Shown: piece after piece, positions 4,645 to 59,251 of the stretch
Numbering within the stretch: position 1 is the first letter of the stretch
Layout of the letters: every line of letters starts with the position of its first letter
NCBI GenBank assembly: GCA_964607765.1
Contig: CAZSNT010000010.1
Coordinates: forward strand, 27,049 to 91,048
DNA from: an uncultured Victivallales bacterium
GTDB taxonomy: Bacteria; Verrucomicrobiota; Lentisphaeria; Oligosphaerales; JABHEG01
Direction: 5' to 3'
Length of the DNA stretch: 64,000 nt
Program-made: the position numbers and the translations under genes
The notes under the pieces: model-generated
What the model was told of the DNA's origin: nothing
The model's input: the letters and a program-made list of their open reading frames with translations, nothing else
Databases searched by the model: none

Positions 4645-4658
4645 AGCACTTCTCCCTG

Positions 4659-5564: not shown

Positions 5565-5685
5565 ACTGTCCGTTCCCTTCGCTTGCGGGCGGTTGACGGA
5601 ACACCACCTCTATCAATAGAATGCGTGTGAGGGCCGCAGGCAAGTTGGGGCAGGTTTTCAGCGCGGCCTCGTTTGGTGCCTGGCA

Positions 5686-8600: not shown

Positions 8601-8886
8601 GTTCCCGCAGCGCCCTGTCCTGCGCCTGCAGCATCGGGTTGGCGGCGTCCAGAGCCCTTCCTGCATCCAGTTGATCATAGAGCTGCCAGAACAGGTCGAA
8701 TTTGTTGAAGCTGATCTCGGCGAACGGCTGACCGTCGAGAAAGAAGCGGCCGTCACGAATCGAGAGCACATCGTCTTTCGTCAAAGGCATCGTCGCAACT
8801 CCCTCCGCCATGACGTTGGGGTGTGGCCAGCCCGTTACCAGAATGGCCGTGAAGACGGCCAGAGCTGCTGCTTTGGGTCGGATCAT
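5686..8886 (-). CDS. Secreted GH5-like (mannanase/cellulase clan GH-A) glycoside hydrolase fused to an alpha/beta-hydrolase (carbohydrate esterase-like) domain
   Basis: Start re-called at MIRPKAAALAVF (signal peptide, GGGAGA RBS). WEVGNE acid/base and LMIGELG nucleophile motifs; second half has FHGGGG, GISYGG (GxSxG), STVDRFF and NSDH. Confidence 0.82.
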   Translation of the reverse strand: MIRPKAAALAVFTAILVTGWPHPNVMAEGVATMPLTKDDVLSIRDGRFFLDGQPFAEISFNKFDLFWQLYDQLDAGRALDAANPMLQAQDRALRELHEMGFRTIRIFALPWGPRGPESYAAPEKRKLLYAALDKTLELCDTYDIRVVWSLAAGTFTDTKLVPGKGWVHGEEHQRELISNPASRGRQLLHRYIDETVERYRHRRAVLMWEVGNETTLSADIGSHERIYKGERMPTLKDVAAFFDDVAKRIKAADPLRLVNSGGSHMRESQWNLYTNRSWRKDTFEEQFKCFDMLYTDNAVDVIDVHSYMNNRPGYVISDGAGGEAFLDNRDWMTIARRIGKPLMIGELGLHARPKTDRKIWDVTPDYFESYSDTAAAKPWVEKSLNSVIDTGVQLSYWWCYQSDRAMDQNNPQRFDITRGRNPELLACFVAANKRLRSKLRAGPDIRQTELAEGAAVRPASSARAETVKAGPAAAERAPAPIDCTTWDLTTWRTWPFDYEELGVRTAPLASGKVGDWTSIGDSWVARNGGNAAAIRVRNVKADFADFRVTDFYITGGGNEDGPNRIFCATAVPVGVQGRVPVLFVFHGGGGHASGALALSIARKNPGFAGVAVDYNGQFRPSKSPVTKWVTVTAELRKPEHNLIPNKLNFPMYHFAQASRRVLDWVDEQSWADRDKYGAVGISYGGWVSFFIAGQDARIKTVYTGVSAAGTAGMRGRACLPHDWRPAKQLPIWMANADPAVYAKQTQARVYLNLSTVDRFFWLDGAARQRDTFPHKAQWLLRPNSDHGNGGPELPDTIGLWHRTAMLGDASFPAFREVVCAGNMAVASIDSGKPLQAVYLAWAPGDAVSVARYYLWIRAEETDGRWFARIPDTLRDLCATYYFTAIDEDGRAVSSDLMKNEGDGIREALVWQDGCLWDVASGAAAWRSDLAGDRAAIEDAENGRVTFAPTRPGKRVAVLSNSFAVGEAAGTMHQGIRIELGGNGASFKAHVVLSRDYQSLDMQTFAAEVTVSPDVTTSEIPWDVFTEFGRETTERNNLPANGLVLITPSMPASGLTVGRVEWLDRPK

Positions 8887-9137
8887 GTTCGTTCTCCCGG
8901 TTCGACGGTGATCCCGGCCGCAGGGCAGAGCATCGAGTTTGCGGGGGACCATAGTTTCACCCGCACGGATTCCCCGGTCAAGTTGGCGTATTCCACATTC
9001 ACGAAGAACGTGTTTTCGGTCATGTTCGAGAAAGTCCAGCGAAGGCGTGCCCCGGTGGCATCGAAGCAGGCGATGTGCTGTGTCCCGTACCGGGCTGCCG
9101 CTCGTTGGGTCCGTTGTCCCTTCAGTACAAGATCCAC
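8883..9137 (-). CDS. Small hypothetical protein or gene remnant
   Basis: 84-codon ORF whose TGA overlaps the ATG of the GH5 gene (ATGA coupling). Composition is protein-like but no family is recognised. Confidence 0.3.
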   Translation of the reverse strand: MDLVLKGQRTQRAAARYGTQHIACFDATGARLRWTFSNMTENTFFVNVEYANLTGESVRVKLWSPANSMLCPAAGITVEPGERT

Positions 9138-9326
9138 AGTGAGAGGCGGGGGGCAGTGCCTGGGACGCGGTCTGCGGCACGCGCGGCCTGCAGGTCGAAA
9201 GGAGCGCCGCCGCGGGAATTCGGGCGGGGTTGTTCATGATTGCTCTTCAACGGCTGCTCCCGGAGCCCGCAGCAGATCAAGGGCGGCACGGTACTCAGAC
9301 GGCACGGCGTCGTAGAACCTGTCACT

Positions 9327-11819
9327 CTATCCCCTCACAACATGCAACAGGGACTTGACGGTAACCTGCGGCAACGGCCTGGCGCTGGACAGCTCAATCG
9401 TCCGGGTCTCGCCGGGGATGAGATCGAAGTAGTTGTCACTCAGCGTGACATCCCGCAGCCGATCGAACGGGACTTCCACGACCACGAAGCGCGCGTAGTT
9501 CTCGGACGTGATCGTCAGAGCGGAGTCATCCAGCTCCCACGCGAGTTTCGGCGCCTCGAACGCGACGTCCTTGAACAGTTGCGGGAAGTAGTTTTCCGCA
9601 AGAACCTGCTCACCAACCGTCCATTCCATGCGCAGGAACTGATTCGGCTGCCTGGCCGTGCCGGGAGCGTAGGTCTTGACGGTCACAGCGCTGTTGGCCG
9701 GGCAGATGCCGTCGACGGTCTCTTCCCACTCAACGTTGCCGAAGATGTCCATGCAGCGGATCGTCACCGGGCCGGCGGCATCCGCCAACGTGTCGTTGAG
9801 CAGGTGCAGTGTGAACTCGTCGTGGACGCGTTTGATGGTGACGGCCAGGGGTGCGAAGAGCTTCTTCTCCATCCAGTAGGCGGGTTTGAGCGCGCCGTAG
9901 AAATCGACGTTCGCCCAGTTCGAGCACGGCCAGCACTCGTTGTACATCCAGAGCATGGCCCCGCTGTTGCCCCACTTGGTGGAGCGGTAGAACCCAAGCT
10001 CTTCGCGTACCATTTCCGCGTGCGCCATCATGGCGTTGCCGGTGAAGCTCTCGGCACTGTCGCACGGGCCGATGATCTCCTCGGCAGCAGTGAGCTGCGA
10101 GATGACGAAGCGCGGATGGACTTTCGGATTTGCCGGATGCCGCATGACGTGGAAGTCGACGACCTCGTTCGGCGGCCAGATATCGCTCTTGTCGAGGAAC
10201 TGCAGCTGCGACGGCAGCGGCGACGGGCCCTGCAGACAGATCTCGCCGTTGAACACGGTGCGCACCAGCTTCAGCCGATCCCGGTACGTGCCGTACCCGT
10301 CCGAGCCCGTCCGCGGCCACATGGACCAGTGCGTCTCGCCGGAAGTCTGGATCTGGCCGAAGTCGGACTTGCCGTGCGATGAGCCGGGGATGTAGGGGGT
10401 GAACGGCGAGAGATCGCCGACCACGCCGCGGTAGTAGTAGCGGGTCAGGCGCCGCCCCGGACGGTCCGGCGTGTAGCGGTGCGAGCTGGAGCTCTCGTTG
10501 CCGCCGCACCAGCAGGCAACCGCCGGGTGATTGCGCAGCCGTTTGACCTGGTACTCCGCCTCCTCGATGATGTTGCGCAGGAAGAACTCGTCATCGTCCG
10601 GCGGCTCGGCGCAGGCGTTGGTGAAGTCTTGCCAGACCATGACGCCGCGTCTGTCGCACTCCTCGTAGAACGCGTCCTTCTCGTAGATGCCGCCACCCCA
10701 GATACGCAGCATGTTGTAGTTGGCCTCCTGCGCGCGGCGGACCAGGTACTCGTAGGTGGTGTCCTCGATCACGCCGGGGAAGCAGTGGGCGGGCACCCAA
10801 TTCGCGCCCTTGATGAAGACGCGCTCGCCGTTCACCAGGAAGGTGAAGCTGATGCGGTCCGCCTCTATCTTCTTCTCCTCGATCGCGACCGAGCGGAAGC
10901 CGAAGGTCTTGGTCACGACATCCTGTTCGAGCCCCTCCTCGTCACGCAATGTGACGCGACACTGGTACAGCGGCTGCTCGCCCATGCCGTTCGGCCACCA
11001 CCACTCCGGGTCGTCCACCTGCAGACAGATGAAGTTGTGCACGCCGGTGATGGTGATCTGGTCGCTGGCCACCGCCTCGCCGTTGCGGGAGATCTCGGCA
11101 TGCAGTGTCCCAGTCGGGTAATAAGGCCGAACGTTGCTCAGTGGCACGCCTTTGGGTGCCTTGTCCCGGGGAAGCAGCGGCAGTTCAATGCGCACGCAGC
11201 AGTCACCGTCGAGCTGTGCCTCGACGAACACGTTCTCGATCTTCACCCCATCGGTTTCCTCGAGGAACACGTCCTGCCAGATCCCGAGCGCCAGCGCGTC
11301 AGGCGCCCAGTCCCAGCCGAATTGGCACTGCGCATGACGCACCAGCGATCGGCCCGGCGTGAACAGGCTCCAGTACTGTGGGTACTGCTCGTGCAGGTCT
11401 TCGACCATCTTGCGCGTCGGCGCAAACTCGACCTCGAGTCGGTTCGACCCGAGCTTGACCGAGCCGGTCACGTCGAACCGGAACGCCTTGAAGGCGTTGT
11501 CGCTCCTGCCGACCTCCGCGCCATTCACGTAGACGGTGGCGAACAGGTCCAGCCCGAGGAAGACCAGCTCGAGCTTGTTCTCCGGCAGGGCTGCCAGCGT
11601 GAAATCGCGCGCATACCACCAGGTCTTGCCTTCGACCCACTTGGCCTGTTTCAGGTTCTCGCGATAGAACAGATCCGTCGGCAGTTGCCCGGCTTTGCTC
11701 AGCGCAACCGTGACATCACCCGGTACGTCAGCGTCGTGCCATGTCCCTGCCGGCCGCTCCCCTGCCCCGTCGCTGCACGCGAGTTTCCACACGCCGTTCA
11801 GATCTGTCTGCTGTTTCAT
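9327..11819 (-). CDS. GH2 beta-mannosidase
   Basis: FGWDWAP, KGANWVPA, NMLRIWGGGIYE, VWQDF, WCGGNE and WMYNECWP motifs typical of GH2 beta-mannosidases; GGAGGA RBS. Confidence 0.9.
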   Translation of the reverse strand: MKQQTDLNGVWKLACSDGAGERPAGTWHDADVPGDVTVALSKAGQLPTDLFYRENLKQAKWVEGKTWWYARDFTLAALPENKLELVFLGLDLFATVYVNGAEVGRSDNAFKAFRFDVTGSVKLGSNRLEVEFAPTRKMVEDLHEQYPQYWSLFTPGRSLVRHAQCQFGWDWAPDALALGIWQDVFLEETDGVKIENVFVEAQLDGDCCVRIELPLLPRDKAPKGVPLSNVRPYYPTGTLHAEISRNGEAVASDQITITGVHNFICLQVDDPEWWWPNGMGEQPLYQCRVTLRDEEGLEQDVVTKTFGFRSVAIEEKKIEADRISFTFLVNGERVFIKGANWVPAHCFPGVIEDTTYEYLVRRAQEANYNMLRIWGGGIYEKDAFYEECDRRGVMVWQDFTNACAEPPDDDEFFLRNIIEEAEYQVKRLRNHPAVACWCGGNESSSSHRYTPDRPGRRLTRYYYRGVVGDLSPFTPYIPGSSHGKSDFGQIQTSGETHWSMWPRTGSDGYGTYRDRLKLVRTVFNGEICLQGPSPLPSQLQFLDKSDIWPPNEVVDFHVMRHPANPKVHPRFVISQLTAAEEIIGPCDSAESFTGNAMMAHAEMVREELGFYRSTKWGNSGAMLWMYNECWPCSNWANVDFYGALKPAYWMEKKLFAPLAVTIKRVHDEFTLHLLNDTLADAAGPVTIRCMDIFGNVEWEETVDGICPANSAVTVKTYAPGTARQPNQFLRMEWTVGEQVLAENYFPQLFKDVAFEAPKLAWELDDSALTITSENYARFVVVEVPFDRLRDVTLSDNYFDLIPGETRTIELSSARPLPQVTVKSLLHVVRG

Positions 11820-46537: not shown

Positions 46538-47941
46538 GTGACTACGCCAACCACCAATCTTGGGACGGTGGACGCATCCATCGTCGTTGTGTGCCTCCTC
46601 GCTGTTCTGGTGGCGGGGTTGGCTTTGGCCGGGAGGGCCAGGACGGAGGCCGAGTTCGCGGTGGCCGGACGACGCCTCTCTGCGCGGGTGATGGGGCTGT
46701 CAGTGTTCGTCTCATGGGTGGGACTCGCGGGGTTGTTCGGGACGCCGGAGAACGTGTACAAGTTCGGGCTCTCCGGCATGTGGTGGTTCCAGGCGTGGCT
46801 CCCCGGTGCGTTGCTGATGGCTTGCCTGCTGGCCACACGCCTGCGCGCCCGGTCGCACACCACCGTTTCCGAAGTCATCGCGGCCCATTCCGGGCCGTCC
46901 GCCCGCGTCGCGGCTTCGCTGGTCACATCCTGGAACTACCTGGCCTGGGTCGCCGTACAGGTCTTCGCCCTCGGCACGATTCTCGGGATGTGCACACCTG
47001 TCGGCTCGACTGCCGGCGTTGTGATTGCGTTCCTGATTGTGGTTGCCTACACATTGAGCGGCGGACTGCCGGCGGTCGTGGTCACGGACGTGTTCCAAGG
47101 CGTTGTTGTCATCGGCGTCATTCTCGTCATCGCACCCGTGATGGGACTGGTGCACGCCGGCGGTTGGAATGAGGTGATGCAGCACACGCGCGATATTCCG
47201 GAGTTCTACACGTTGTTCAGAGGAGCGGGGACCAAGACCCTCACCGTGTGGTTCTTAAGCCTGGTCCCAGCCGCTTTCATCGATCCGGGTGGACTGCAGA
47301 AGGTCTTTGCCGCCAGTGCGCCGGCGACAGCGAAACGTGGGCTTCTTCTGAGTGCGCTCCTGTATTTCCTCCTTGGCTTGTCGATCACGCTCCTTGGAGT
47401 TGTGGCACGCGCCCTATTACCCGCGATTGACCCTCAACAGGCCATGCCAGCCGTGCTCCTGCGCGTGTTACCTACGGGGCTCAAAGGCCTAGCGATCGTG
47501 GCCTTCCTCGGTGCGGCCATGTCGACGGCAGACACGGCGCTCGTGGTGGTGGCGACCACCTTGCAGCGCGACCTCTACACGCCACTCCGCGGCGACATAA
47601 GCGAACGCGAGCGTTTGCTCGTCTCACGTGTTCTGGTTCTGCTGTTCGGCCTGGCCGCTTTGTTCATCGCTTTGACCGCGAAAGGGGTTGTGGCTATTCT
47701 ACTGATGGGCTTTGCCCTGTATGTGCCGGGTCTGTTGCTGCCCATGCTCGCGGCGTCGTTCGGCTGGCGCCTGTGCCGGGGAACTGCGTGTGCAACGATC
47801 TGTGTCGGGGCCGGCAGCGCAGCGCTCTGGACCGCACTGAAGGAGCCGTTCGTGCCGGCCATTGTGGCCGGGCTGGCTGCCTCGCTGGTCCCGTTCCTGT
47901 GCGGCCGATTCGTCCGTCTGAAGACGGGAGACGCCAAGTGA
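46538..47941 (+). CDS. Sodium:solute symporter (SLC5/SSS) family transporter
   Basis: About 12-13 transmembrane helices; EFAVAGRRL, YTLSGGLPAVVVTDVFQ, QKVFAA and AAMSTADT. Confidence 0.9.
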   Translation: MTTPTTNLGTVDASIVVVCLLAVLVAGLALAGRARTEAEFAVAGRRLSARVMGLSVFVSWVGLAGLFGTPENVYKFGLSGMWWFQAWLPGALLMACLLATRLRARSHTTVSEVIAAHSGPSARVAASLVTSWNYLAWVAVQVFALGTILGMCTPVGSTAGVVIAFLIVVAYTLSGGLPAVVVTDVFQGVVVIGVILVIAPVMGLVHAGGWNEVMQHTRDIPEFYTLFRGAGTKTLTVWFLSLVPAAFIDPGGLQKVFAASAPATAKRGLLLSALLYFLLGLSITLLGVVARALLPAIDPQQAMPAVLLRVLPTGLKGLAIVAFLGAAMSTADTALVVVATTLQRDLYTPLRGDISERERLLVSRVLVLLFGLAALFIALTAKGVVAILLMGFALYVPGLLLPMLAASFGWRLCRGTACATICVGAGSAALWTALKEPFVPAIVAGLAASLVPFLCGRFVRLKTGDAK

Positions 47942-49923
47942 AAGACGCCGACAAGACCAAGGCGCAGCTGATCGCGGAGCTGGCGCAATTTCGCGCTCTG
48001 GTCTCCGAGGCGGGACTCGACTCACGTGATCCGGCGAATGTCCCGCACCAGCGGCCACCGCTGCCCATCGACTCATTCGAGCGCAGGTATCTCGATCTCA
48101 TCCAGCGGAACCGCGACGGCTATGCCCTGCTGGACATGGATGGCGGGTTCGTGCTCTGCAATCCCGCCTACCGCCAGATGCTCGGCTATGCCGAGGAGGA
48201 GCTCCGGGAGTGCACCTACGCGGACATCACGCCCGAAGAGTGGCATGCAGCGGACGAAACGGGCCTCCAACAGATGCTGCAGCTGGGGCACTGCGACCTG
48301 TACGAGAAGGAGTACCGCCGCAAGGACGGCACGCTGTTCCCCGTCGAGATCCAGTCCTACCTGATCAGGGACAGCGACGGCGGGCCCACCGGCATGTGGT
48401 CGTTTGTGCGAGACATCACTGAGCGCAAAGAGACAGACCAATCCCTGCACAAAGCCAATCGCGCTCTGAGGATGCTCAGTGACTGCAACCGCGTTGTGGC
48501 GCGAAGCGCTGAGGAGCGGTCGCTGCTGGTCGAGGCGTGTCGCCTGGTCATCGAGGTCGGCGGCTACCGTCTCGCGTGGATCGGGCTCGCGGAGAATGAC
48601 ACGCGTCGGACGGTCCGCCCTGTGGCGCAGGCGGGGTATGGGGGCGGCTACCTGGACACCGTCGACATCACCTGGAGCGACACTGAGCGCGGCCGTGGCC
48701 CGACCGGCACCGCCATCCGGACAGGCAGACCGGTCGCGTGCCGCGACATCCTGAGCGATCCAGATTATCGACCATGGCGAGAAAGCGCGCGGGCGCGAGG
48801 GTACGCGTCCTCGATAGCCCTGCCCCTTGTTGTGGACGATGCGACACTGGGGGCCCTCAACATCTATGCCGAGGAGACTGATGCGTTCGATGCCGGGGAG
48901 GTCGAGCTGCTCGTGGAGCTTGCCGACGACCTCGCTCTCGGCGTGTCATCGCTGCGCCACCGGGCCGAGCGCCGGCGGGCGGAAGAGCAGGTTGCGGCGC
49001 TACATGACCGCTTCAAGAAGATTGCCGCCAATGTGCCTGGGACAATCTACCAATTCTGCCTACGGCCCGATGGAACGTTCTTTGTTCCCTATGCCAGTGA
49101 GGGCTTCCGGGACATCTACGAACTGTCACCCGATGATGTCAAGGAAGATGCCTCGCCTGTCTTCGACCTCGTGCATCCTGAGGATCGTGAGCGCGTCACA
49201 TGGGGCGTTGCGGAGTCCGGGGAACAGCTCACTCCCGGGCATGAGGAGAACAGAGTCGTTCGGCCGTCGGGCGGGACAATCTGGGTGGAAGGCGACTCCA
49301 CCCCGCAGAAACTCGAGGACGGCACCATCGTCTGGCATGGATACATGAGGGACATTTCTGCACGCAAACAGGCGGACGAGGAACTGAATCGGGCGGCGCG
49401 TCAATGGCAGGCGACCTTCGATGCAGTTGAGGACGGGGTGGCCCTGATCGAAGTGGACGGCACGCTGCTGCGGTGCAACCGGGGCATGGAGCAGCTCTTC
49501 GATGAGCACCAAGATAAGATGGTGGGCAGGAAGTGCTGGGAGGTCGTGCATGGCACGTCCGAGCCGGTCGAGGGCTGTCCGGGGTTGCGCACGCGCGAGA
49601 CGCTGCGTCGCGAATCGATGGAGCTGGCGCGAGATGGACAATGGCTTGAGATCACGGTCGACCCTCTGCTCGGCCCCGAGGGCAAGCTCATCGGCGCCGT
49701 GCACGTTGTCAGCGACATCACCGAGCGCAAGCAGGCGGAAGCGGAATTGGCCCGCCACCGCGAGGATCTGGAAGAGGAGGTCCACGAGCGGACCCGGGAG
49801 CTCCGGACAATCGTGAATGCCATGGCGGGACGTGAGGTGCGTATGGCCGAGTTGAAAGATGAGATTGCGGGTATGAGGGAGCGCGTTCGAGAGCTGGAGG
49901 GGCAAGCATCACCTGATGGATAG
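47938..49923 (+). CDS. Cytoplasmic PAS-GAF-PAS-PAS sensor protein with C-terminal coiled coil and no catalytic output domain
   Basis: Start re-called at GTG 47938 (GTGA overlap, GGGAG RBS). KTKAQLIAEL coil, three DIT/DIS-ERK PAS ends, GAF (GRGPTGTAIRTG...SSIALPL...GALNIY), ends ERTRELR...MAGREVRMAELKDEI. Confidence 0.88.
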   Translation: MKDADKTKAQLIAELAQFRALVSEAGLDSRDPANVPHQRPPLPIDSFERRYLDLIQRNRDGYALLDMDGGFVLCNPAYRQMLGYAEEELRECTYADITPEEWHAADETGLQQMLQLGHCDLYEKEYRRKDGTLFPVEIQSYLIRDSDGGPTGMWSFVRDITERKETDQSLHKANRALRMLSDCNRVVARSAEERSLLVEACRLVIEVGGYRLAWIGLAENDTRRTVRPVAQAGYGGGYLDTVDITWSDTERGRGPTGTAIRTGRPVACRDILSDPDYRPWRESARARGYASSIALPLVVDDATLGALNIYAEETDAFDAGEVELLVELADDLALGVSSLRHRAERRRAEEQVAALHDRFKKIAANVPGTIYQFCLRPDGTFFVPYASEGFRDIYELSPDDVKEDASPVFDLVHPEDRERVTWGVAESGEQLTPGHEENRVVRPSGGTIWVEGDSTPQKLEDGTIVWHGYMRDISARKQADEELNRAARQWQATFDAVEDGVALIEVDGTLLRCNRGMEQLFDEHQDKMVGRKCWEVVHGTSEPVEGCPGLRTRETLRRESMELARDGQWLEITVDPLLGPEGKLIGAVHVVSDITERKQAEAELARHREDLEEEVHERTRELRTIVNAMAGREVRMAELKDEIAGMRERVRELEGQASPDG

Positions 49924-51481
49924 GCATGAGGCACCAATCAAGAGCTCCTCGGCTCGGTGTCGCCTCACGATGACGCGTGCTGGATACGCGGGCTCCGCCC
50001 GAGGCGCGTGCGCGCTGCCGCTCATATTCGCAACGTTTGTGCTCCTTCTCGCTGCTGCCGAGACAGCGGCACTCGACCCGGCTGAGGTCGCCCCGGCGTC
50101 GGCGCCAGCCGCTCCGGAAGCGGTCCTCGTGGCACGCGGCAACCACGCCTACCCGCCCTACGAGTTCATTGACGAGAAGGGGGATCCTGCTGGTTTCGGG
50201 GTGGAACTGATGCAGGGCGTGGCTCGGGTCATGGGACTGAGAATCGACATCCGTCTCGGACCGTGGCACGAGGTCCGCATGGACCTCGAGGCGGGCAGGA
50301 TTGACGCCGTGACCGGCATGTTCTTCTCAGCGGAACGAGCGAGGCGGGTGGATTTCTCAACACCGTATATCGTTATCTCTCACGCAGTGTTCGTCCGAAG
50401 CGACTCACAGATCCGCTCGATCGAGGACATCCGCGGGCACGCTGTCATCGTGCAGCGCGGCGACATCATGCACGATTACGCGCGGGAACGCCTCTCGGGA
50501 TGTCGACTCATTGCCGTCCCCGAACAACTCGATGCTCTGCGCCTCCTGGCCTCCGGGGAACATGACTGTGCGCTCCTGCCAAGATTGCAGGGGCTCTACC
50601 ACGCGCGCAACAGCGGCTTGAGCAACGTGCGTGCAGTGGGGCCGCCAATCGAGCCCAAGAAATGCTGCTTTGCCGTAGCGAAAGGGAGAGAGAATCTGGT
50701 AGTTCAGCTAAACGAAGGTCTGGCCATCCTGAGACAGACCGGCGAATATGAGCGGACATTCGAGAAGTGGTTCGGACCGCGGGAGGGGCACAGTCACCTG
50801 CGGCACGTGATCTGGGTCGCCGCCCCCTTGGCCATCCTGTTCCTGTTGGCATTGGCCTGGTCGTGGACGCTGCGTCGGCAGGTAAGGGCCCGTACGGCGG
50901 CGATCGAAGGCGAGCTCAAGGCACGTAGAGAGGCGGAAGAAGAGCGGGATCGCATCCTCGCGCTTTCCCAGGACTTGATATGCGTGGCGGGAATGGACGG
51001 CTTCTTCAAGTACGTCAATCCTGCGTGGGAACAGGTTCTCGGGTACTCGGAAGAGGAATTGCTGACACGACCGTTCCTCGAGTTCATACACCCGGATGAC
51101 CACTCTCGTAACGATGCGGAGGTAGCCCAACTGTCCAACGGACAGAAGACGGTCGGCTTCGAGAACCGGTATGTGTGCCGGGACGGCTCTGTCCGCCACA
51201 TGTCGTGGACAGCAACGCCATTCACCGCGGAAGGCCTCATCTACTGCATCGGCCGGGACGTCACCGACCGGAAGCGTGCGGAGCAGGAACTGGCCAGTCA
51301 CCGTGAGCACCTGGAAGAAGAAGTTGAGAAGCGCACGGCGGAACTGAAGAAGACGGTCGGTCTCATGGCGGGACGTGAGGTCCGTATGGCCGAGTTGAAG
51401 GAGGAGGCGCGGTCACTCAAGAGACTGCTGGCTGAAGACCAGGAACGGGCCGAGCAGCGCGAGTCGGAGGGAGAGGAATGA
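49916..51481 (+). CDS. Membrane sensor: periplasmic amino-acid-binding (SBP family 3) domain + TM + PAS + C-terminal coiled coil, no output domain
   Basis: YPPYEF...GFGVEL...GRIDAV...ERARRVDFSTPY...FAVAKG; TM helix; PAS ending GRDVTDRK; ends KRTAELK...MAGREVRMAELKEEA. Start could be 49970. Confidence 0.87.
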   Translation: MDRHEAPIKSSSARCRLTMTRAGYAGSARGACALPLIFATFVLLLAAAETAALDPAEVAPASAPAAPEAVLVARGNHAYPPYEFIDEKGDPAGFGVELMQGVARVMGLRIDIRLGPWHEVRMDLEAGRIDAVTGMFFSAERARRVDFSTPYIVISHAVFVRSDSQIRSIEDIRGHAVIVQRGDIMHDYARERLSGCRLIAVPEQLDALRLLASGEHDCALLPRLQGLYHARNSGLSNVRAVGPPIEPKKCCFAVAKGRENLVVQLNEGLAILRQTGEYERTFEKWFGPREGHSHLRHVIWVAAPLAILFLLALAWSWTLRRQVRARTAAIEGELKARREAEEERDRILALSQDLICVAGMDGFFKYVNPAWEQVLGYSEEELLTRPFLEFIHPDDHSRNDAEVAQLSNGQKTVGFENRYVCRDGSVRHMSWTATPFTAEGLIYCIGRDVTDRKRAEQELASHREHLEEEVEKRTAELKKTVGLMAGREVRMAELKEEARSLKRLLAEDQERAEQRESEGEE

Positions 51482-53361
51482 CGCGCTCGCGACCCGACAG
51501 TCCGGTCGCCCTTCGGTGGCACGTGTATGTGGCCTTGGGCATCGCCACCGCCGCGATGGTGTGCACGGTGGGCTACTCTCTGCACATGGGCGACCGCGCG
51601 CTGCGCGTGTACGCGCCGTTGATGAACGCGGCCATGGGGATCAAGCTGGAAGCAGCCATCGCCCATCTCTGGTTCGAGGAAATACTCAGTGGGGATCGCC
51701 ATGAGAGCATCGAGGACGTGTGGCAGCACTTGGACCAAGCGGCTTGGTACGCGGATGCGATGCTGGAGGGCGGCGCGAATGAGAAGGGCACGTTCATCGC
51801 GCTTGGCGATCCGGAACTCCGGCGTGAAGTCGAGGGCGTGCGCACCAAGATTGCCCGGTTTCGGACGGTCGCCGAACAGCGCTACGCTTCTCGCGATCGG
51901 GCCAAGGCCGGGACCGGTATCGACCAACGCTTTGACGCCGTGTTCCACGACTTTATGGCTCAGGCTGACGGAGTGGCGCGCGCACTCCGACGACTGATGC
52001 AGGTGCAGAGGCGGAGCTTCCTGGCTATCCAGGCGGGCCTTGGCGTCGCCTACGTCGCGCTGAGCGTGCTTGCCGTCGGCGTGTTGCGCCGCCAGGGCCG
52101 GAGACGCAGGCTGTATTCGCAGGAACTGGGCCGGAACGAGAAGCGTTTGCGGAGCGTCGTGGAGAGCATGCCGGTGATGCTGGACGCCTTCGACGAGAAA
52201 GGGATCCTGCTGACGTGGAACGGGGAGTGCGAACGCGTGACCGGGTATGCGGAAGGCGAATTGGTGGGCAACCCCCGGGCGATGGAGATACTGTATCCCG
52301 ACCCTGACTATCGAGAGAAGATGGTCAAGGCGTGGGCGGAGCGGGGCGACAGTTACCGCGACTGGGAGTGGAACATCACGTGCAAGGACGGCAGCGTCAG
52401 GACCATCGCGTGGTCCAATATTTCTGATGTATTCCCGATCCCCGGTTGGGCAAGCTGGGGAGTCGGTCTGGATGTGACGGGCAGGAAGCGCACGGAGCAG
52501 GAGCTTCGTGACGCACGTGGGGAACTTGGGCAGCGCGTCCGCGAGCGTACGACCGAGCTGCGGGAACGCATCCAGGAGTCTGAGCAGCTGAACCGTGCGA
52601 TGGTGAACCTGCTGGAGGACCACCAGGAGAGCAACCGCAGGCTCAAGGAGGCCAAAGCCGCTCTCGAGTCTGCCAATCGGGAGCTCGAGACCTTCAGCTA
52701 TTCGGTCTCCCACGACCTGCGTGCGCCGCTGCGGGCCGTCGACGGCTTCAGCAAGGCGCTGATGGAGGACTGCGCAGACCGACTGGATAGCGAGGGGCTT
52801 GATTATCTGCAGTGCCTGCGTGAGGCGAGCCAGAACATGGGCCGGCTGATCGACGATTTGCTCGCGCTGTCTCGCGTGGCGCGCGACCCGATGCGCAAGG
52901 AACAGATCGATTTGAGGGAGATTGCCGAGGATGTGGTGTCCGAACTGCGCGAGGACGATCCGGAACGGAACGTCGCGTTCGCCGTGTCCGACGGCCTCTC
53001 GGCGGAGGGGGATCCCGGCCTGATGCGCGTCGTGCTGATGAACCTCCTGGGCAATGCGTGGAAATTCACCCGCGGAACGGAGTCGCCGCAGGTCGAGTTC
53101 GGCGTCACCGGGGAAGGCAACCAGCCCGTGTATCACGTTCGCGACAATGGCGCCGGCTTCGACATGGCTCACGCCAACAAGCTCTTCGGACCGTTCCAGC
53201 GCCTGCATGCGGTCCATGAGTTCGAGGGCTCCGGCATAGGGCTCGCCACCGTGCAGCGCATCGTTCACCGTCACGGCGGGCGCGTGTGGGCCGAGGGCGC
53301 CCCAGGCGAAGGCGCGACGTTCTACTTCACGCTGGCACCGGAGCAGGAGAAAAGCCCATGA
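51478..53361 (+). CDS. Membrane PAS sensor histidine kinase (Cph1/BphP-type HisKA core)
   Basis: Two TM helices, PAS, H-box FSYSVSHDLRAPL, N-box NLLGNAWKF, DNGAGF, F-box LFGPFQRLH and G2 GSGIGLA; ATGA overlap. Confidence 0.95.
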   Translation: MTRSRPDSPVALRWHVYVALGIATAAMVCTVGYSLHMGDRALRVYAPLMNAAMGIKLEAAIAHLWFEEILSGDRHESIEDVWQHLDQAAWYADAMLEGGANEKGTFIALGDPELRREVEGVRTKIARFRTVAEQRYASRDRAKAGTGIDQRFDAVFHDFMAQADGVARALRRLMQVQRRSFLAIQAGLGVAYVALSVLAVGVLRRQGRRRRLYSQELGRNEKRLRSVVESMPVMLDAFDEKGILLTWNGECERVTGYAEGELVGNPRAMEILYPDPDYREKMVKAWAERGDSYRDWEWNITCKDGSVRTIAWSNISDVFPIPGWASWGVGLDVTGRKRTEQELRDARGELGQRVRERTTELRERIQESEQLNRAMVNLLEDHQESNRRLKEAKAALESANRELETFSYSVSHDLRAPLRAVDGFSKALMEDCADRLDSEGLDYLQCLREASQNMGRLIDDLLALSRVARDPMRKEQIDLREIAEDVVSELREDDPERNVAFAVSDGLSAEGDPGLMRVVLMNLLGNAWKFTRGTESPQVEFGVTGEGNQPVYHVRDNGAGFDMAHANKLFGPFQRLHAVHEFEGSGIGLATVQRIVHRHGGRVWAEGAPGEGATFYFTLAPEQEKSP

Positions 53362-53777
53362 AGCGGCGAGCGATCCTTCTGGTTGAAGACAACCCTCACG
53401 ACGTCAAACTCACGCAACGGGCCTTCGGCAAGTGCAACCTGGCCAACGAGATCGCCGTTGCCCGTGACGGACAGGAGGCCCTCGACCTCCTCCATGGGGA
53501 CACGACACGCCCTCTGCCGGCGGTCGTCCTGCTGGACCTGAAGCTGCCGAAAGTGGACGGAATCGAGGTGCTCCAACGGATTCGGGCCAGCGAACGGACG
53601 CAGGCGCTGCCGGTGGTGATCCTGACATCGTCCAAGGAACAGGAGGATGTGGCCGCCAGCTACCGGCACGGCGCAAACAGCTACATCCGCAAGCCGGTGG
53701 ACTTCGATCGATTCGTTGAGGCCGTCGCACAACTTGGGCTCTACTGGCTCGTGCTGAACGAACCGCCGCCGGCATGA
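53358..53777 (+). CDS. Single-domain response regulator (Rcp1-like)
   Basis: Start re-called at MKRRAILLVEDN (ATGA overlap). LLDLKLP (phospho-Asp), LTSS, YIRKP and the C-terminal LYWL..NEPPP typical of Rcp1/CpdR-like partners of this kinase class. Confidence 0.93.
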   Translation: MKRRAILLVEDNPHDVKLTQRAFGKCNLANEIAVARDGQEALDLLHGDTTRPLPAVVLLDLKLPKVDGIEVLQRIRASERTQALPVVILTSSKEQEDVAASYRHGANSYIRKPVDFDRFVEAVAQLGLYWLVLNEPPPA

Positions 53778-53782
53778 TCTTC

Positions 53783-53824
53783 GATTGCGGATTGCGGATT
53801 GCGGATTGCGGATTGCGGATTGCG
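53783..53824. repeat. Heptamer array (GATTGCG)6, left flank of the four-helix-bundle gene
   Basis: Six perfect copies. Confidence 0.95.
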
Positions 53825-53835
53825 CGGAGAGGGAA

Positions 53836-54188
53836 ATGATACCTGAAGCGATGAAGAAGCGGACGAAGCAGTTCGCGCTGCGAGTCATTCGACTGTGTGA
53901 GGCCCTGCCCGAGCCCCCTGTTGCGCGTGTCATCCGTAGTCAGCTTCTGCGTTGTGGTACCAGTGTCGGGCCAACTACCGCGCTGCGTGCAGGGCCAAGT
54001 CGACGGCAGACTTCATCAGCAAGATGGGAACGGTCGAGGAAGAAGCCGACGAGTCCATGTACTGGATGGAGATGATCATCGACGCCGGCCTGATAGCACA
54101 GGAGCTCGTCCGCGATCTGCACCTGGAAGCGGACGAGATCCTCTCCATGATCGTTGCCTCGATCAACACGGCAAAGCACAACAGGTGA
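53836..54188 (+). pseudogene. Four-helix-bundle protein (23S rRNA IVP / Avd-like family), frameshifted
   Basis: MIPEAMKKRTKQFALRVIRLC...QLLRCGTSVG in one frame continues as ANYRAACRAKSTADFISKMGTVEEEADESMYW... in another. One G is missing at GTC-GGG-CC-AAC (53968-53970) relative to the family consensus QLLRSGTSVGANY. Confidence 0.88.
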
Positions 54189-54192
54189 GCGC

Positions 54193-56064
54193 ATGTCCGG
54201 CAATCCCAAATCCGCAACCCGCAATCCCCAATCCCTCCGCGTTCTGCTTGTCGAGGACAGCGAGCACGACGCGAAGCTGCTGGTGCGTGAACTGAAGTCC
54301 GGCGGCTTCGGTGTCGCATGGGAGCGCGTCGACAGCGAAACGACGATGCGCGCGACTTTCGAGTCGTCATCGTGGGATCTGATCGTCTGCGACTACAACG
54401 TGCCCGGCTTCGGAGCACTGCCCGCTTTGGCGCTCTGCGGAGAGTTGGGGCTGCATACGCCTTTCATCGTCGTGTCCGGCGCCGTTGGTGAGGCAGCGGC
54501 CGTCGAGTGCATGCGCCGCGGCGCGCATGATTTCCTCATGAAGGACCGCCTTGTCCGGCTGTGCGAAGCCGTGCGCCGCGAGCTTCGCGAGGCCGAGACG
54601 CGCCGCCGCAGGCGGGAGGCCGAAGACGCACTCCAGGAGAGCACACGGCGCCTTGCCACACTCATGGCCAACCTGCCCGGAATGGCTTACCGCTGCGCCA
54701 ACACGCGCGACTGGCCAATGGACTTTGTGAGCGAGGGATGCCTGGCGCTCACGGGGTATCGTGCGAATGAGCTCATGGGCCGCGATCGGCGTCTCTACGG
54801 CGACCTAATTCACCCGGATGACCGACAGATGGTCTGGGACTGTGTCCAGGATGCCGTATCACGGGGCGGACGTTTCGTCGTCGAGTACCGACTGATAGAC
54901 AAGAAGGAGCAGACACGGTGGGTCTGGGAACAAGGACAGGCCGTTGGCACGGACCGTGACAGGGCCCTGATCCTGGAGGGATTCATCACTGACATCACAG
55001 ATCGCAAGAGAGCTGAACAGCAGCTTCAGGACGCGCTCGCGGAACTCCGTTCAGTACACGATAGGGTGAGCGCGGAGAATGTGCTCTTGCGCGAGAAACT
55101 GCGCATGGGAGACCGCCACGGCGACATCGTGGCTCGAAGCGATGCCATGAAGACCGTCCTCGTCCAGGCCGAACAAGTCGCGGAAACAGACTCCACGGTG
55201 CTGATTCTCGGCGAGACGGGAACGGGTAAGGAACTCCTGGCCCGGGCAATTCACGACATGAGCACGCGACGCGACAAGCCGCTCATTACCGTCAACTGCG
55301 CCACAATCCCCGCCGCCTTGGTGGAGAGCGAGCTGTTCGGTAGAGAGAAAGGCGCTTACACCGGGGCGGTGAGTCGACAGATCGGTCGTTTCGAGGCCGC
55401 TGACACAGGAACGCTGTTCCTGGACGAAGTCGGCGAACTGCCCTTGGAGACTCAACCCAAGCTCCTGCGCGTGCTGCAGGAGGGGCGGTTTGAACGTCTG
55501 GGAAGCACCGACTCCGTCAAGGTCGATGTCCGAGTAGTCACTGCAACCAACCGGAATGTGGAGAGGGATGTCCGGGAGGGCCGCTTCAGGGAGGACCTGT
55601 TCTTCCGGCTCAACGTCTTCCCGATCACCATCCCGCCACTGCGGGAACGCGCTGACGATGTCGAGCCGCTCGTGTGGAAATTCGTACGCGAGTTCGCCAC
55701 GAGAATGGGCAAGCCCGTCGAGGCAGTCTCGCAAGCCGATATGGCCCGGCTGCGAGCGCACCCCTGGCCGGGCAACGTCCGCGAACTGCGCAACGTGGTC
55801 GAGCGAGCCATGATTGCCGCGCAAGGTCCGACACTGGGGATACGGCCCCCCCGACCAGCCGGTCACGCGGCAGGTGCATACCGCGGTCTCACTCTGGACG
55901 ATGTCCAGCGACGACACATCCTCACCGTTCTCAAGCAGACGCGGTGGCGGGTCCGCGGCGACGCGGGCGCCGCTCAGATCCTCGGCCTCAAGCCCACCAC
56001 CCTCGAATCGCGGATGCAGAAACTGGGCATCCGCCGCCACTCCACGCCCTCCGATATATCGTAG
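54193..56064 (+). CDS. Sigma-54-dependent enhancer-binding protein (REC-PAS-AAA+-HTH, FhlA-like C-terminus)
   Basis: REC (VEDSEHD, VCDY), PAS, Walker A GETGTGKE, ESELFG.EKGAYTGA, LFLDEVGE, FREDLFFRLNVFPI, WPGNVREL and HTH AAQILGLKPTTL. Confidence 0.94.
   Translation: MSGNPKSATRNPQSLRVLLVEDSEHDAKLLVRELKSGGFGVAWERVDSETTMRATFESSSWDLIVCDYNVPGFGALPALALCGELGLHTPFIVVSGAVGEAAAVECMRRGAHDFLMKDRLVRLCEAVRRELREAETRRRRREAEDALQESTRRLATLMANLPGMAYRCANTRDWPMDFVSEGCLALTGYRANELMGRDRRLYGDLIHPDDRQMVWDCVQDAVSRGGRFVVEYRLIDKKEQTRWVWEQGQAVGTDRDRALILEGFITDITDRKRAEQQLQDALAELRSVHDRVSAENVLLREKLRMGDRHGDIVARSDAMKTVLVQAEQVAETDSTVLILGETGTGKELLARAIHDMSTRRDKPLITVNCATIPAALVESELFGREKGAYTGAVSRQIGRFEAADTGTLFLDEVGELPLETQPKLLRVLQEGRFERLGSTDSVKVDVRVVTATNRNVERDVREGRFREDLFFRLNVFPITIPPLRERADDVEPLVWKFVREFATRMGKPVEAVSQADMARLRAHPWPGNVRELRNVVERAMIAAQGPTLGIRPPRPAGHAAGAYRGLTLDDVQRRHILTVLKQTRWRVRGDAGAAQILGLKPTTLESRMQKLGIRRHSTPSDIS
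54199..54233. repeat. Degenerate heptamer array (CGCAATC)5, inverted relative to 53783-53824
   Basis: GGCAATC CCAAATC CGCAACC CGCAATC CCCAATC; lies inside the 5' end of the downstream regulator gene. Confidence 0.85.
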
Positions 56065-56284: not shown

Positions 56285-59251
56285 ATGCCTGATCAACTGC
56301 CCCCTGCCATGCCACAGCCGATCCGTGTCTTGATCGTCGAGGACAGCGAGCACGACGCCAGACTACTCGTCCGTGAGCTGACGAAAGGTGGTTTCAAAGT
56401 CGCATGGACACGCGTCGCTTCGGAGGAGCAGATGCGGTCGTCGCTCGAGTCGTCGGAGTGGGACCTTGTCATCAGCGACTACAGCATCCCCGGCTTTGGC
56501 GGCATGGAAGCCCTGTCGCTTCACCAGCAGTTGCGGCTGGACATTCCCTTCATTGTCGTGTCCGGCACGGTGGGCGAGGATGTGGCGGTCGGATGCATGC
56601 GTGAGGGCGCCCATGACTACCTCATGAAAGACCAGCTGACACGACTGTGCGAAGCGGTCCGGCGCGAGCTCCGCGAAGCCGACATGCGCCGTACACACCG
56701 CGAGGCCTCCACTGCGTTGGCACGTAGCGAGGAGCGCCTGGGCCTCGTGTGGGAGAACGTGGAAGCGGGCATCATCCTCGTCGATGCGGCTACGCGCGAC
56801 GTTATCGACATCAACCCGGTTGCCGCAGCGATGATCGGCAGTCCCCGGGGCGATATCGTCGGGCGGCAGTGCCACGAGTTCATCTGCCCCGCGGAACGGT
56901 GCAAGTGCCCCGTCCTCGACCTGGGCCAAACTGTGGACCGCTCCGAGCGGCAACTCGTACGGGTCGACGGCTCGTCGCTCCCCGTCGTGAAGTCGGTCAC
57001 GCCGATTGAGCTGGACGGTCGGCAGGTCCTGCTGGAGAGCTTCGTGGACATTGCCAAGCTTCGGGAAGCGCAGAAAGCGCTGCGCGTAACGCAGTTTGTC
57101 ACCGACCATGCCGTGGAAGCGGTCTACTGGATGGGCCCCGACGCACAGTTTCTGTACGTGAACGACACGGCCTGTCGGTGTCTGGGCTACTCGCGGGACG
57201 AACTGCTGACCATGACGGTGCACGACATTGACCCCAACTTCCCGAAAGAGGCATGGCAACAGCACTGGGCAGAGCTCAGGGAGAAGGGCAGCATGGTGGT
57301 CGAGTCGGTCCACCGCGCGAAGGACGGTCGTGAGTTCCCGGTCGAGATCTCGCTCAGCTACCAGGTTTCCGAAGGCGAGGCGCGCAACTGCGCTTTTGCC
57401 CGCGACATCACCGAGCGCAGGCAGGCCGAGGCACGGCGCGCGCTGGAGGCGCGAGTACTGGAGACGCTCAACGGTTCCAACGGCTGGCAGAACCTGCTGC
57501 GTGACCTGCTGGCCGGCATCAAGGAGTTCACCGAGTTCGATGCGGTTGGCCTGCGATTGCGTGACGCGGATGATTATCCCTACTACGAGTACAACGGGTT
57601 CTCTGAAGATTTCGTGATCGGCGAGCGCTACCTGTGCGCCCGGGACGATGCCGGAGAGATCGTTCGTGATGCCTCCGGGGATCCCTGCCTGGAGTGCATG
57701 TGCGGCAACGTGATCAGAGGCCGGACCGACGCGACGCTGCCCTGTTTCACCGATGCAGGCAGTTTCTGGACGAACAGCACCTCTGCGCTGTTGGGTGAAG
57801 GCAACACCCTGAACTGTCAGGGACGGATGCGCAATGAGTGCAGTGCCGCAGGATACGAGTCAGTGACCCTCATTCCCCTCCGTTCCGGGGACGAGACGAT
57901 TGGCCTGTTACAGCTCAATGACCGGCGCCCCGACCGCTTCACTCCGGACCTCATCCGATTCTTCGAGGAGATTGGCCACAGCATCGGCATCGCCTGCACG
58001 CGACGCGCCATGCATGAGGCGCTGGAGGAGAGCGAGCGACGCCTGACCACGCTGTTGGGCAACCTGCCAGGCATGGCCTACCGCTGTCTGAACGAGCCAG
58101 ATCGCCCGATGGAATTCGTCAGCGGGGGCGGGATGGCCCTGACCGGGTACACGCCCGACGAGCTGACCGACACAGAGCACCCGGCTTATGGCGAACTGAT
58201 CCATCCGGAGGACCGTCAACGGGTGTGGGATACCGTCCAGGATGCACTGAGCCAAGGACAGACCTTTGCCGTTGAGTATCGCCTCTCCGACCGGCAGGGA
58301 GCGGAGCGCTGGGCCTGGGAGCAAGGCCAGGCGGTCGGTGAGGACAGCGACGGCACGGTCGTCATGGAGGGAGTCATCCATGACATCACCGAACGCAAGC
58401 GGGCTGAAGAGCATCGGCGGACTGCGGAGGCCCAGCTCCGGCAGTCGCAGCGGCTCGAGTCCATCGGCACACTGGCAGGCGGCGTTGCGCACGAGATCAA
58501 CAACCCGATCAATGGCATCATGAACTACGCACAGCTGATCCGGGATGAACTTGGGCAAGAGCCGGGCGAGTTGGGCGAGTTCGCCTGTGAGATCGTCCAT
58601 GAGACGGAGCGCGTCGCAGCCATCGTGAAAAGCCTGCTTCAGTTCGCGCGGCACGACAAGCGATCGCACAGTCCTGCACGGGTCTGTGACATCGTGGAAG
58701 GCACCTCGTCGCTGATCCGCACTGTCATGCGTCACGACCAGATTACGTTGAGCATTGATGTCCCGGACAGCCTGCCTGAGATCCGCTGTCGCAGCCAGCA
58801 GATCCAACAAGTCGTGATGAACCTCCTCACCAACGCCAGAGATGCCCTGAACGACAAGTACGAGGGGTATGACGAGAACAAAGTCATCGAGGTGAAGGCA
58901 CTGCTGCTGGCGCAAGGACGTCCGAAGCGCTTTCCATGCCGCCGCCTCGCCCCAGACGCGAAGGCGAGTGACGTCAGGGAATCCCCTCCTGCGTTGCGCT
59001 CCGGGGACGCTGTCCCGCCGATGATTCGCATCACCGTTGCGGACCGCGGCACAGGCATTCCGGACCGTGTTCGTGAGCGCATGTTCGACCCCTTTTTCAC
59101 GACAAAGGCACGGGACAAGGGCACGGGGCTGGGCCTGGCCATCAGCCACGGCATCGTCAAAGACCATGGCGGCGACATGAGCGTAGAGAGCAAGCCCGGC
59201 GAATACACACGCTTCCACGTGGACCTGCCCGCAGCACAACCGTCGTCCTGA
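56285..59251 (+). CDS. Hybrid cytoplasmic histidine kinase REC-PAS-PAS-GAF-PAS-HisKA-HATPase (NtrB-type core)
   Basis: REC (VISDY), PAS domains, Cys-rich GAF, H-box GVAHEINNP, NLLTNARDA, DRGTGI and FDPFFTTK...GTGLGL. Start could be 56309. Confidence 0.93.
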   Translation: MPDQLPPAMPQPIRVLIVEDSEHDARLLVRELTKGGFKVAWTRVASEEQMRSSLESSEWDLVISDYSIPGFGGMEALSLHQQLRLDIPFIVVSGTVGEDVAVGCMREGAHDYLMKDQLTRLCEAVRRELREADMRRTHREASTALARSEERLGLVWENVEAGIILVDAATRDVIDINPVAAAMIGSPRGDIVGRQCHEFICPAERCKCPVLDLGQTVDRSERQLVRVDGSSLPVVKSVTPIELDGRQVLLESFVDIAKLREAQKALRVTQFVTDHAVEAVYWMGPDAQFLYVNDTACRCLGYSRDELLTMTVHDIDPNFPKEAWQQHWAELREKGSMVVESVHRAKDGREFPVEISLSYQVSEGEARNCAFARDITERRQAEARRALEARVLETLNGSNGWQNLLRDLLAGIKEFTEFDAVGLRLRDADDYPYYEYNGFSEDFVIGERYLCARDDAGEIVRDASGDPCLECMCGNVIRGRTDATLPCFTDAGSFWTNSTSALLGEGNTLNCQGRMRNECSAAGYESVTLIPLRSGDETIGLLQLNDRRPDRFTPDLIRFFEEIGHSIGIACTRRAMHEALEESERRLTTLLGNLPGMAYRCLNEPDRPMEFVSGGGMALTGYTPDELTDTEHPAYGELIHPEDRQRVWDTVQDALSQGQTFAVEYRLSDRQGAERWAWEQGQAVGEDSDGTVVMEGVIHDITERKRAEEHRRTAEAQLRQSQRLESIGTLAGGVAHEINNPINGIMNYAQLIRDELGQEPGELGEFACEIVHETERVAAIVKSLLQFARHDKRSHSPARVCDIVEGTSSLIRTVMRHDQITLSIDVPDSLPEIRCRSQQIQQVVMNLLTNARDALNDKYEGYDENKVIEVKALLLAQGRPKRFPCRRLAPDAKASDVRESPPALRSGDAVPPMIRITVADRGTGIPDRVRERMFDPFFTTKARDKGTGLGLAISHGIVKDHGGDMSVESKPGEYTRFHVDLPAAQPSS

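Follow-up and report, generated by a model that had tools for sequence, protein, structure and literature searches.

Output-less sensors with a conserved C-terminal helix encoded ahead of a kinase with a matching stalk motif: a candidate plug-in sensor operon of an uncultured Victivallales bacterium

A stretch of 64,000 nucleotides from an uncultured Victivallales bacterium (GenBank assembly GCA_964607765.1, contig CAZSNT010000010.1, positions 27,049 to 91,048 of the forward strand; hereafter the window) contains two adjoining genes for sensor proteins without any output domain, followed by the genes of a histidine kinase and a response regulator. How could such sensors pass on what they detect? 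The original prediction for this DNA proposed that both sensors end in a docking helix for an extra helix of the kinase. Here, we call the C-terminal segment of the sensors the tail and the extra kinase segment the socket. Our analysis makes it rather probable, from sequence comparison, that the unit is a many-sensors-to-one-kinase signalling operon in which the tail docks on the socket. The predicted feeding of one kinase by interchangeable stand-alone sensors is well supported as a functional coupling of tail sensors and socket protein, by their co-occurrence and by the co-variation of their subclasses.

We compared the products of the two sensor genes with Pfam and NCBIfam. The results showed unrelated inputs, PAS-GAF-PAS-PAS in sensor 1 and SBP_bac_3, a membrane helix and PAS in sensor 2, in agreement with the original prediction. 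No HisKA, HATPase, GGDEF, EAL or HTH domain was detected in either protein with these two databases, and a DHp domain with a phospho-acceptor His and an ATPase domain, the marks of a histidine kinase, were likewise missing from both. In both sensors and in the kinase, the last PAS domain runs straight into a signalling helix (S-helix) of the ERT type (EEEV.ERT.EL in both sensors, VRERTTEL in the kinase). The S-helix of the kinase does join input to output, whereas in the sensors a 45-residue tail alone follows, with no output domain downstream. Both sensors end in EEEV.[E/K]RT.EL...MAGREVRMAELK plus 21 or 26 further residues, and the 12-residue cores of the tails are identical, as predicted. 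The DNA had been described as matching at 35 of 36 positions between 49821-49856 and 51364-51399, which is correct; over the 12 codons proper, 34 of 36 nucleotides are identical.

The kinase product matches PF00512 at residues 404-467 and PF02518 at residues 511-621, and together with the adjoining receiver it is a classical two-component system on both counts. Between its S-helix and DHp lies the socket, whose core NRAMVNLLED (52591-52620) ends 31 residues ahead of the phospho-His, close to the predicted distance of about 30. We scanned the 10.6-Mb genome for both motifs. A tail regular expression matched only the two open reading frames (ORFs) of the window, and the tail hidden Markov model (HMM) scored these at 61 and 54 bits, with the next match at 22. 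The socket HMM had the window kinase as its only strong match (55 bits, and 67 bits in a profile search of 401 genomes), and four other kinases of this genome with the same H-box type all lack the socket segment.

The predicted overlap of all genes through the response regulator was also found. At the junction with the upstream symporter gene, a GTGA overlap places the symporter stop over the GTG start of sensor 1; sensors 1 and 2 overlap by 8 bp, and the sensor 2/kinase and kinase/regulator junctions are ATGA each. The statement that this is the only kinase holds for the overlapping unit but not beyond it, where a second kinase gene follows, a frequent feature in the maps of related loci. Contigs from three runs in two studies contain no insertions or deletions at the locus, and those of the independent study extend across three junctions (sensor 1/sensor 2, sensor 2/kinase and kinase/regulator) and show 0 differences there, indicating that the sensor stop codons are real.

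Tail and socket families in other genomes

In a word-seeded search, the last 70 residues of sensor 2 matched 86 proteins at E <= 0.01 among 557 candidates. HATPase_c was present in 0 and HisKA in 1 of these, and their inputs included PAS, GAF, dCache, HAMP, SBP_bac_3, CHASE, PocR, Cache and receiver (REC) domains in many combinations. A loose tail regular expression matched near the C-terminus in 84 of the 86, the usual ending being RTAEL..VNLMAGREVRMAELK.VI.KLR.QL..AGL.PVADDPL. We compared a profile of 60 tails with 1.84 billion representative sequences, which yielded 985 clusters at E <= 1e-3 (694 at E <= 1e-10); among the best 150 of the 985, the match nearly always ends no more than about 20 residues from the C-terminus. 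The 81 regular-expression tails of 78 loci from species-representative genomes all lie 14-37 residues from the stop, and the tail HMM recognised 108 tail ORFs at >=38 bits in 79 loci, with the next score at 23. The tail-bearing genomes are all metagenome-assembled, mostly Anaerolineales, with others from Planctomycetaceae, Lentisphaerae/Victivallales, Verrucomicrobiota, Nitrospirota, Desulfobacterota and further groups. On these sequence data, the tail is a real, widespread C-terminal module: a conserved helical segment of about 45 residues that continues the S-helix, with the core (L/A)MAGREVRMAELK. Both window sensors belong to this family, with a C-terminal G-R-E-x-R-M-x-E-L-K after an S-helix and no output domain. 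The original prediction underestimated the scope of the tail, since the family is large and also ends receiver proteins. No Pfam or NCBIfam model covers tail or socket, and PDB sequence searches with all four tail and socket profiles gave nothing at E < 0.1, that is, no solved structure with either module.

A further conserved peptide, AGLxPVADDPL or LGxxPPY, is found at the C-terminus of most tails. AGLxPVADDPL is missing from both window tails, from P0005, P0049, P0055 and P0064, and from most other tails of the Planctomycetes-Verrucomicrobia group; in locus L018 the first tail lacks it and the second ends in the related EPVAADPV. Because the window tails and many others of this group do without it, the peptide is unnecessary for membership of the core family.

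The kinases encoded directly after tail genes share the consensus RT.EL..RV.EVE.LNRAM.NLLEDLQ.AN..LE, situated between the S-helix and N.ELE.F.YSVSHDLRAPLR. The socket is thus a conserved stalk segment of about 35 residues with the core LN(R)AM(V)NLLED, and the window kinase has this E-x-LN-x-x-M-x-N-L-L-E-D helix, encoded downstream of tail genes. A 33-residue socket HMM gave 35 ORFs at >=42 bits, three at 19-28 and the rest at <=5. The recurrent locus order is one to five tail genes, the socket kinase, a receiver of about 145 residues and often another kinase. A socket kinase was present in 30 of the 45 loci with at least 5 kb of DNA past the last tail gene. The automatic rule 'tail within 5 kb upstream' mis-scored L027 and L040, in which over-long ORF calls overlap the tail gene, and in L044, with five consecutive tail genes, the socket kinase lies just past the fetched stretch. 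A type-A-like socket also stands at the N-terminus of a HisKA_3 kinase.

In a second arrangement, a kinase and a small receiver are followed directly by a REC(-PAS/GAF)-tail protein, so that the tail is the output of a response regulator (L004, L006, L023, L026, L056, L072 and L077). In L026, another tail gene and a socket kinase gene follow downstream of the REC-tail gene, an order that looks like a cascade from one two-component system to another. A TonB-dependent-receptor-like gene stands between tail sensor(s) and socket kinase in three loci from different phyla (L002, 2145-4469, with a Plug domain; L005, 10347-12647; L036, 7798-9852), and in type-B loci (see below) its place is taken by Peripla_BP_4, Bmp or NMT1 binding proteins.

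We surveyed whole genomes for this first, type-A class. Among 401 genomes of the same phylum, strong tails (>=60 bits) occurred in G000, G101, G104, G242 and G386, and the socket was found in exactly these five and no others. In four of them, about 1.6 to 2.6 kb of a single contig separates tail from socket; those of G101 are on separate contigs. Among 291 Anaerolineae genomes, 14 had a strong socket and 8 had strong tails, all 8 being among the 14. The ratio is many-to-one, as with the 9 tails and 3 sockets of G401.

The window's own genome contains a second tail/socket pair on contig C116 (L090, G000:C116:12000-28000, 4804-11761). Its sensor, of 1170 residues with two SBP and three PAS domains, ends in ELERFNRLAVGRELRMIEIKREINTLLEQLGQGAKY, and the partner kinase (GAF-HisKA-HATPase-REC-REC) carries ARVAMLNMMEDLGEAR just ahead of DHp. 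In this type-B class the tail is ELERFNRLAVGRELRMIELK and the partner helix RRAALNLMEDA. The helix of the L090 kinase includes AMLNMMEDL, and the kinase is followed by genes for a TonB-dependent receptor, a YfiR-like protein and a CHASE8-HAMP kinase. Comparison with hhalign showed that the tails of classes A and B are related (96.8%, E 3e-10), as are their sockets (97.1%, E 7e-11). A type-B tail search, counting the 'shorter' length class by itself, gave at least 126 proteins at E <= 0.01. Of these, 120 were listed, and none contains HisKA or HATPase; the inputs are diverse, some matches are archaeal, and 110 of the 120 match the type-B regular expression 15-54 residues from the end.

We took the best 80 of 425 confirmed type-B matches as metagenome loci, 74 of which had a regular-expression tail. 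A downstream ORF on the same strand carried LN..ED in 25 of these 74, and in 19 of the 29 with at least 3 kb of downstream DNA. The motif occurred in 27 of 434 ORFs of at least 200 residues, all on the + strand: 25 lie downstream of a regular-expression tail gene and the other two in loci without such a tail. None of the 80 loci had an LN..ED ORF upstream of a tail gene so detected, or on its other strand. The socket was present in 14 of 17 downstream ORFs with an H-box, in some cases 150-400 residues before it and ahead of PAS domains. Domain scans of ten socket proteins identified eight HisKA-HATPase kinases, one socket directly before GGDEF and one directly before SpoIIE/PP2C. The placing of the socket in a kinase stalk therefore stands, but is too narrow, as the segment also precedes GGDEF or PP2C or lies far upstream of a kinase core.

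In 301 genomes of the same phylum, the type-B socket was found in 39 and the tail in 57 (both in 37, socket only in 2, tail only in 20, neither in 242). A tail lies within 6 kb on the same contig and strand at 35 of 40 socket sites, 140-3075 bp upstream at 34 of them; one site is reversed. The co-occurrence of both motifs in genomes and operons, proposed as a check by the original prediction, was therefore strongly positive in two homologous classes. In L105 (8219-10084), a KaiC-like double ATPase gene directly follows a type-B tail sensor of 1181 residues, with the socket kinase one gene later. In L171 (G215:C29, minus strand, 3397-8769 of the reverse strand), a frame of 1791 residues contains a type-B tail and, 170 residues later, a socket, with a signal-peptide-like start between them; this is either a natural fusion or two genes without a stop, and we did not use it as evidence.

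Tails and sockets also vary together. In type B, AMLN..EDL sockets accompany REE[RK]M tails in 4 of 4 cases and REL[RK]M tails in 1 of 22. The regular expressions missed the divergent pair of L173, which the profile searches recovered. In a divergent Anaerolineae pair, GREARMMELK adjoins ALQNILDDLQ. A planctomycete family has a two-gene unit in 12 genomes, where tail and socket are 434 to 635 bp apart. In the one examined, a membrane protein of 272 residues ending in RREKRIIDLK is overlapped by a hybrid kinase with ALSMMEDA, and the two have no separate receiver gene next to them. On the sequence level, matched pairs with mutual specificity would give such a pattern.

Proposed mechanism and competing explanations

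The encoded order is almost always one or more tail genes and then the socket gene. We propose that the tail of a sensor dimer would dock on the socket stretch of the kinase stalk, and that the signalling state of the sensor coiled coil would change the stalk and, with it, the balance of kinase and phosphatase activity; activation and inhibition are both possible. Docked sensors would thereby add inputs in trans to the kinase's own PAS input, and the receiver protein would then take the phosphoryl group. Through receiver proteins with such a tail, a two-component system would serve as input to a second one. We infer direct binding of tail and socket, for which the original prediction proposed a hetero-coiled coil of GRE-x-RM-x-ELK with N-LLED; the acidic E-D of the socket may be the partner of the G-R-E arginine, which is invariant. 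Reading the heptads by hand, we reasoned that M-L-I-L-L of RM.EL...I..L...L would fall at positions a and d, with the G-R-E Arg at a core position and the socket E-D on the flank, which would suit a four-helix arrangement.

AlphaFold2 predicted the last 84 residues of sensor 2 as one continuous helix (predicted local distance difference test score 92.5), and the S-helix, socket and DHp helix 1 of the kinase as one helix of 98 residues. Complex prediction with two kinase stalk segments and two tails scored 0.00, which weighs neither way on binding. We dropped the idea that 'VNLMAG' of the tail and 'VNLLED' of the socket are homologous in register, as hhalign aligned only the 8 columns of ERTxEL. 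A tail that is a degenerate DHp helix 1 (ELERF.. against ELExF..SHDL) was not supported either: the tails align with the S-helix part of the kinase profile alone and not with the H-box, and the type-B tail aligns to the PAS end and S-helix (probability 70%).

Several results weigh against docking of the tail on the socket. No similarity of the tail core to socket or DHp was found by hhalign beyond the shared ERTxEL, and co-inheritance in an operon can give the same co-variation without contact. No socket kinase lay nearby in 15 of the 45 type-A loci with at least 5 kb of downstream DNA. No tail was found in six of the 14 Anaerolineae genomes with a socket; contig ends truncate the kinase in two of them, and in the other four the socket has diverged and lacks the N or the E of N-L-L-E-D, a loss that fits the co-variation of the two motifs. 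In type B, 20 of the 57 tail genomes have no socket match, and either the 40-position socket profile misses divergent forms or these tails have other partners. The cut-offs for 'strong' tails were set after the gaps in the score lists had been seen, and the sampled genomes are kin, so that Fisher p-values overstate the association and are rough values.

In a rival view, the tail is no more than a coiled-coil cap for homodimerisation that stabilises the sensor dimer, the sensors act, if at all, through other surfaces such as PAS-PAS contacts, and the socket is a co-inherited signature of a kinase subfamily. Prediction of the tail as a plain continuous helix extending the S-helix fits a cap, as do the lack of profile similarity or a predicted interface linking it to the socket and a co-variation that can equal co-inheritance. 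However, in a generic dimerising coil G-R-E-x-R-M-x-E-L-K would not stay the same from phylum to phylum and from input to input, and the socket is found in differing kinase cores (HisKA with SHDLRAPL, SHEIRTP or THELRSPL H-boxes, and HisKA_3). It also precedes GGDEF and PP2C at varied positions, yet still downstream of tail genes, and the presence and absence of tail and socket in genomes are closely matched. We therefore consider such a cap quite improbable.

It is also unlikely that the tail sensors regulate the downstream protein through a tail docked elsewhere (on DHp, ATPase or receiver), or that both motifs bind a third factor, with the socket serving another purpose. The minimal planctomycete unit is a tail protein and a socket kinase alone, between housekeeping genes, and no third conserved gene appeared in the locus maps, although a small receiver always lies beside the kinase in type-A operons and many type-B socket kinases are hybrids with receiver domains. 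The extra peptide on most tails resembles a separate docking peptide, but the window tails keep the core without it, and the tail is tracked by the socket rather than by output type. An origin of the sensors from longer kinases by breakage or frameshift, or from faulty assembly, is scarcely credible. They do contain a kinase-type S-helix and stop where DHp would begin; however, the 108 tail ORFs in 79 loci and the 985 clusters share one stopping point and a conserved ending, the following gene begins immediately and has N-terminal domains of its own, and the independent contigs are free of indels. The original prediction was thus right to set pseudogene fragments aside.

Docking of tail on socket, if general, would be a plug-and-socket code of prokaryotic signalling, with several mutually orthogonal tail classes (MAGREVRMAELK; AVGRELRMIELK; TIGREE(R/K)MI.LK; MMGREARMMELK; LRREKRIIDLK), each with its own socket, and with histidine kinases, diguanylate cyclases and PP2C phosphatases as outputs. 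We advance this wider code tentatively, as a possibility suggested by the motif classes. If it is true, any dimeric output could receive, in trans and many-to-one, any input of the PAS, GAF, Cache, SBP or receiver type, and receiver-tail proteins would be connectors between two-component systems. Thousands of output-less 'PAS domain S-box proteins' are annotated with no idea of their signalling route. If the tail is a portable docking helix, such orphan sensors would gain a partner predictable from sequence, the integration of several unrelated inputs by one kinase would be explained, and a compact, apparently orthogonal helix pair would be at hand for rewiring sensors in synthetic biology. 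The pair also makes testable how signals cross the coiled-coil stalk of dimeric signalling enzymes.

Neighbouring genes of the window operon

The coordinates of the genes and motifs are given in Table 1. The symporter is probably the first gene of the sensor operon, because its stop overlaps the start of sensor 1; transporter and sensors are thus apparently translated together. The DNA between the regulator and the sigma-54 activator contains an insert of about 450 bp (53783-54234), flanked by 35-nt inverted arms of heptamer repeats (a GATTGCG run) that are 89% complementary. A degenerate ORF within it has a weak, sub-cut-off match (E 0.0055) to the 23S rRNA intervening-sequence protein family, a four-helix bundle. 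The sigma-54 activator and the downstream hybrid kinase have very similar N-terminal receivers and a similar PAS segment (LPGMAYRC...PM.FVS.G), and their inputs look like paralogous modules on two outputs.

Table 1. Genes and sequence motifs of the sensor operon and its downstream context (window positions)
Feature	Position	Strand	Basis
Sodium:solute symporter (SSF) gene	46538-47941	+	Pfam PF00474, E 9e-30
Sensor 1, cytoplasmic PAS-GAF-PAS-PAS, without output domain, type-A tail end	47938-49923	+	ORF, Pfam, NCBIfam
Sensor 1 tail (ERTRELRTIVNAMAGREVRMAELK... to stop); core 12 codons 49822-49857	49786-49923	+	tail HMM 61.4 bits
Sensor 2, periplasmic SBP_bac_3, membrane helix and PAS, without output domain, type-A tail end	49916-51481	+	Pfam, NCBIfam
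Sensor 2 tail (KRTAELKKTVGLMAGREVRMAELK... to stop); core 12 codons 51365-51400	51335-51481	+	tail HMM 54.5 bits
Histidine kinase: membrane N-terminus, PAS, S-helix, socket helix, HisKA, HATPase	51478-53361	+	Pfam
Socket helix ('KLINK') RERTTELRERIQESEQLNRAMVNLLEDHQESNRRLKEA, stalk between S-helix and DHp; core NRAMVNLLED at 52591-52620	52540-52653	+	socket HMM 55.1 bits
Response regulator, receiver only, ATG start at 53358	53358-53777	+	Pfam PF00072
REC-PAS-sigma54 AAA-HTH_8 activator, downstream context	54154-56064	+	Pfam
Second kinase, REC-PAS-PAS-GAF-PAS-HisKA-HATPase, without socket helix, downstream context	56285-59251	+	Pfam

Comparison with known systems

We searched the literature, supplements being outside its reach, by motif strings and concepts, and found no description of a conserved terminal helix with a matching partner motif, only analogues. 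The plug-in sensor arrangement thus appears to be real, widespread and undescribed in print. Parts of its logic occur elsewhere. Short LOV and short PAS proteins are output-less PAS proteins with terminal helices; RetS and GacS, both full kinases, form heteromers through helix-bundle contacts between signalling proteins; and chemoreceptor-CheW-CheA arrays connect many receptors to one kinase. Unlike the sensors and kinase described here, these systems are not known to have a shared motif, and no methyl-accepting chemotaxis protein (MCP) signalling domain, CheW or CheA was found in the window genes or the mapped loci.

The following comparisons extend as far as the accessible text of the cited papers. 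In Vibrio, the stand-alone haem sensors H-NOX and NosP control neighbouring kinases (PMC6769237). As there, an output-less sensor is encoded beside a kinase, the control in that case being in trans. However, H-NOX and NosP are single dedicated folds that bind through globular domains, whereas here a portable tail would serve unrelated inputs and the kinase has a matching motif; no H-NOX or NosP domain was among the Pfam matches of the window genes. The S-helix was described by Anantharaman, Balaji and Aravind in 2006 as an element with positional polarity that links two domains within a single protein (PMC1592074). Both sensors and the kinase likewise carry it directly after the last PAS domain, with the tail continuing as one helix. 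Unlike the form described there, nothing but the tail follows it in the sensors, and the accessible text makes no mention of terminal or stand-alone forms. A census by Galperin states that archaeal and bacterial REC-PAS/GAF proteins without output signal via protein-protein contacts (PMC5847659). Several tail proteins are exactly of the form REC(-PAS/GAF)-tail, but the accessible text of the census names no C-terminal helix or partner motif.

The nearest described logic, by analogy, is that of RsbT and RsbU. RsbT acts on the N-terminal dimerisation domain and coiled-coil linker of RsbU, and the RsbU-N/RsbT module is found linked to GGDEF cyclases and histidine kinases as well (PMC12143880). 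No sequence relation of this pair to tail and socket was seen. In both cases, a separately encoded partner is proposed to act on a helical linker before a dimeric output, and the socket, found before HisKA, GGDEF and SpoIIE/PP2C, parallels RsbU-N with its PP2C, GGDEF and kinase outputs (PMC12143880). The partners differ: RsbT is a globular, kinase-like protein released from the stressosome, whereas the putative binding partner here is a short helix that ends PAS, GAF, Cache, SBP and REC sensors.

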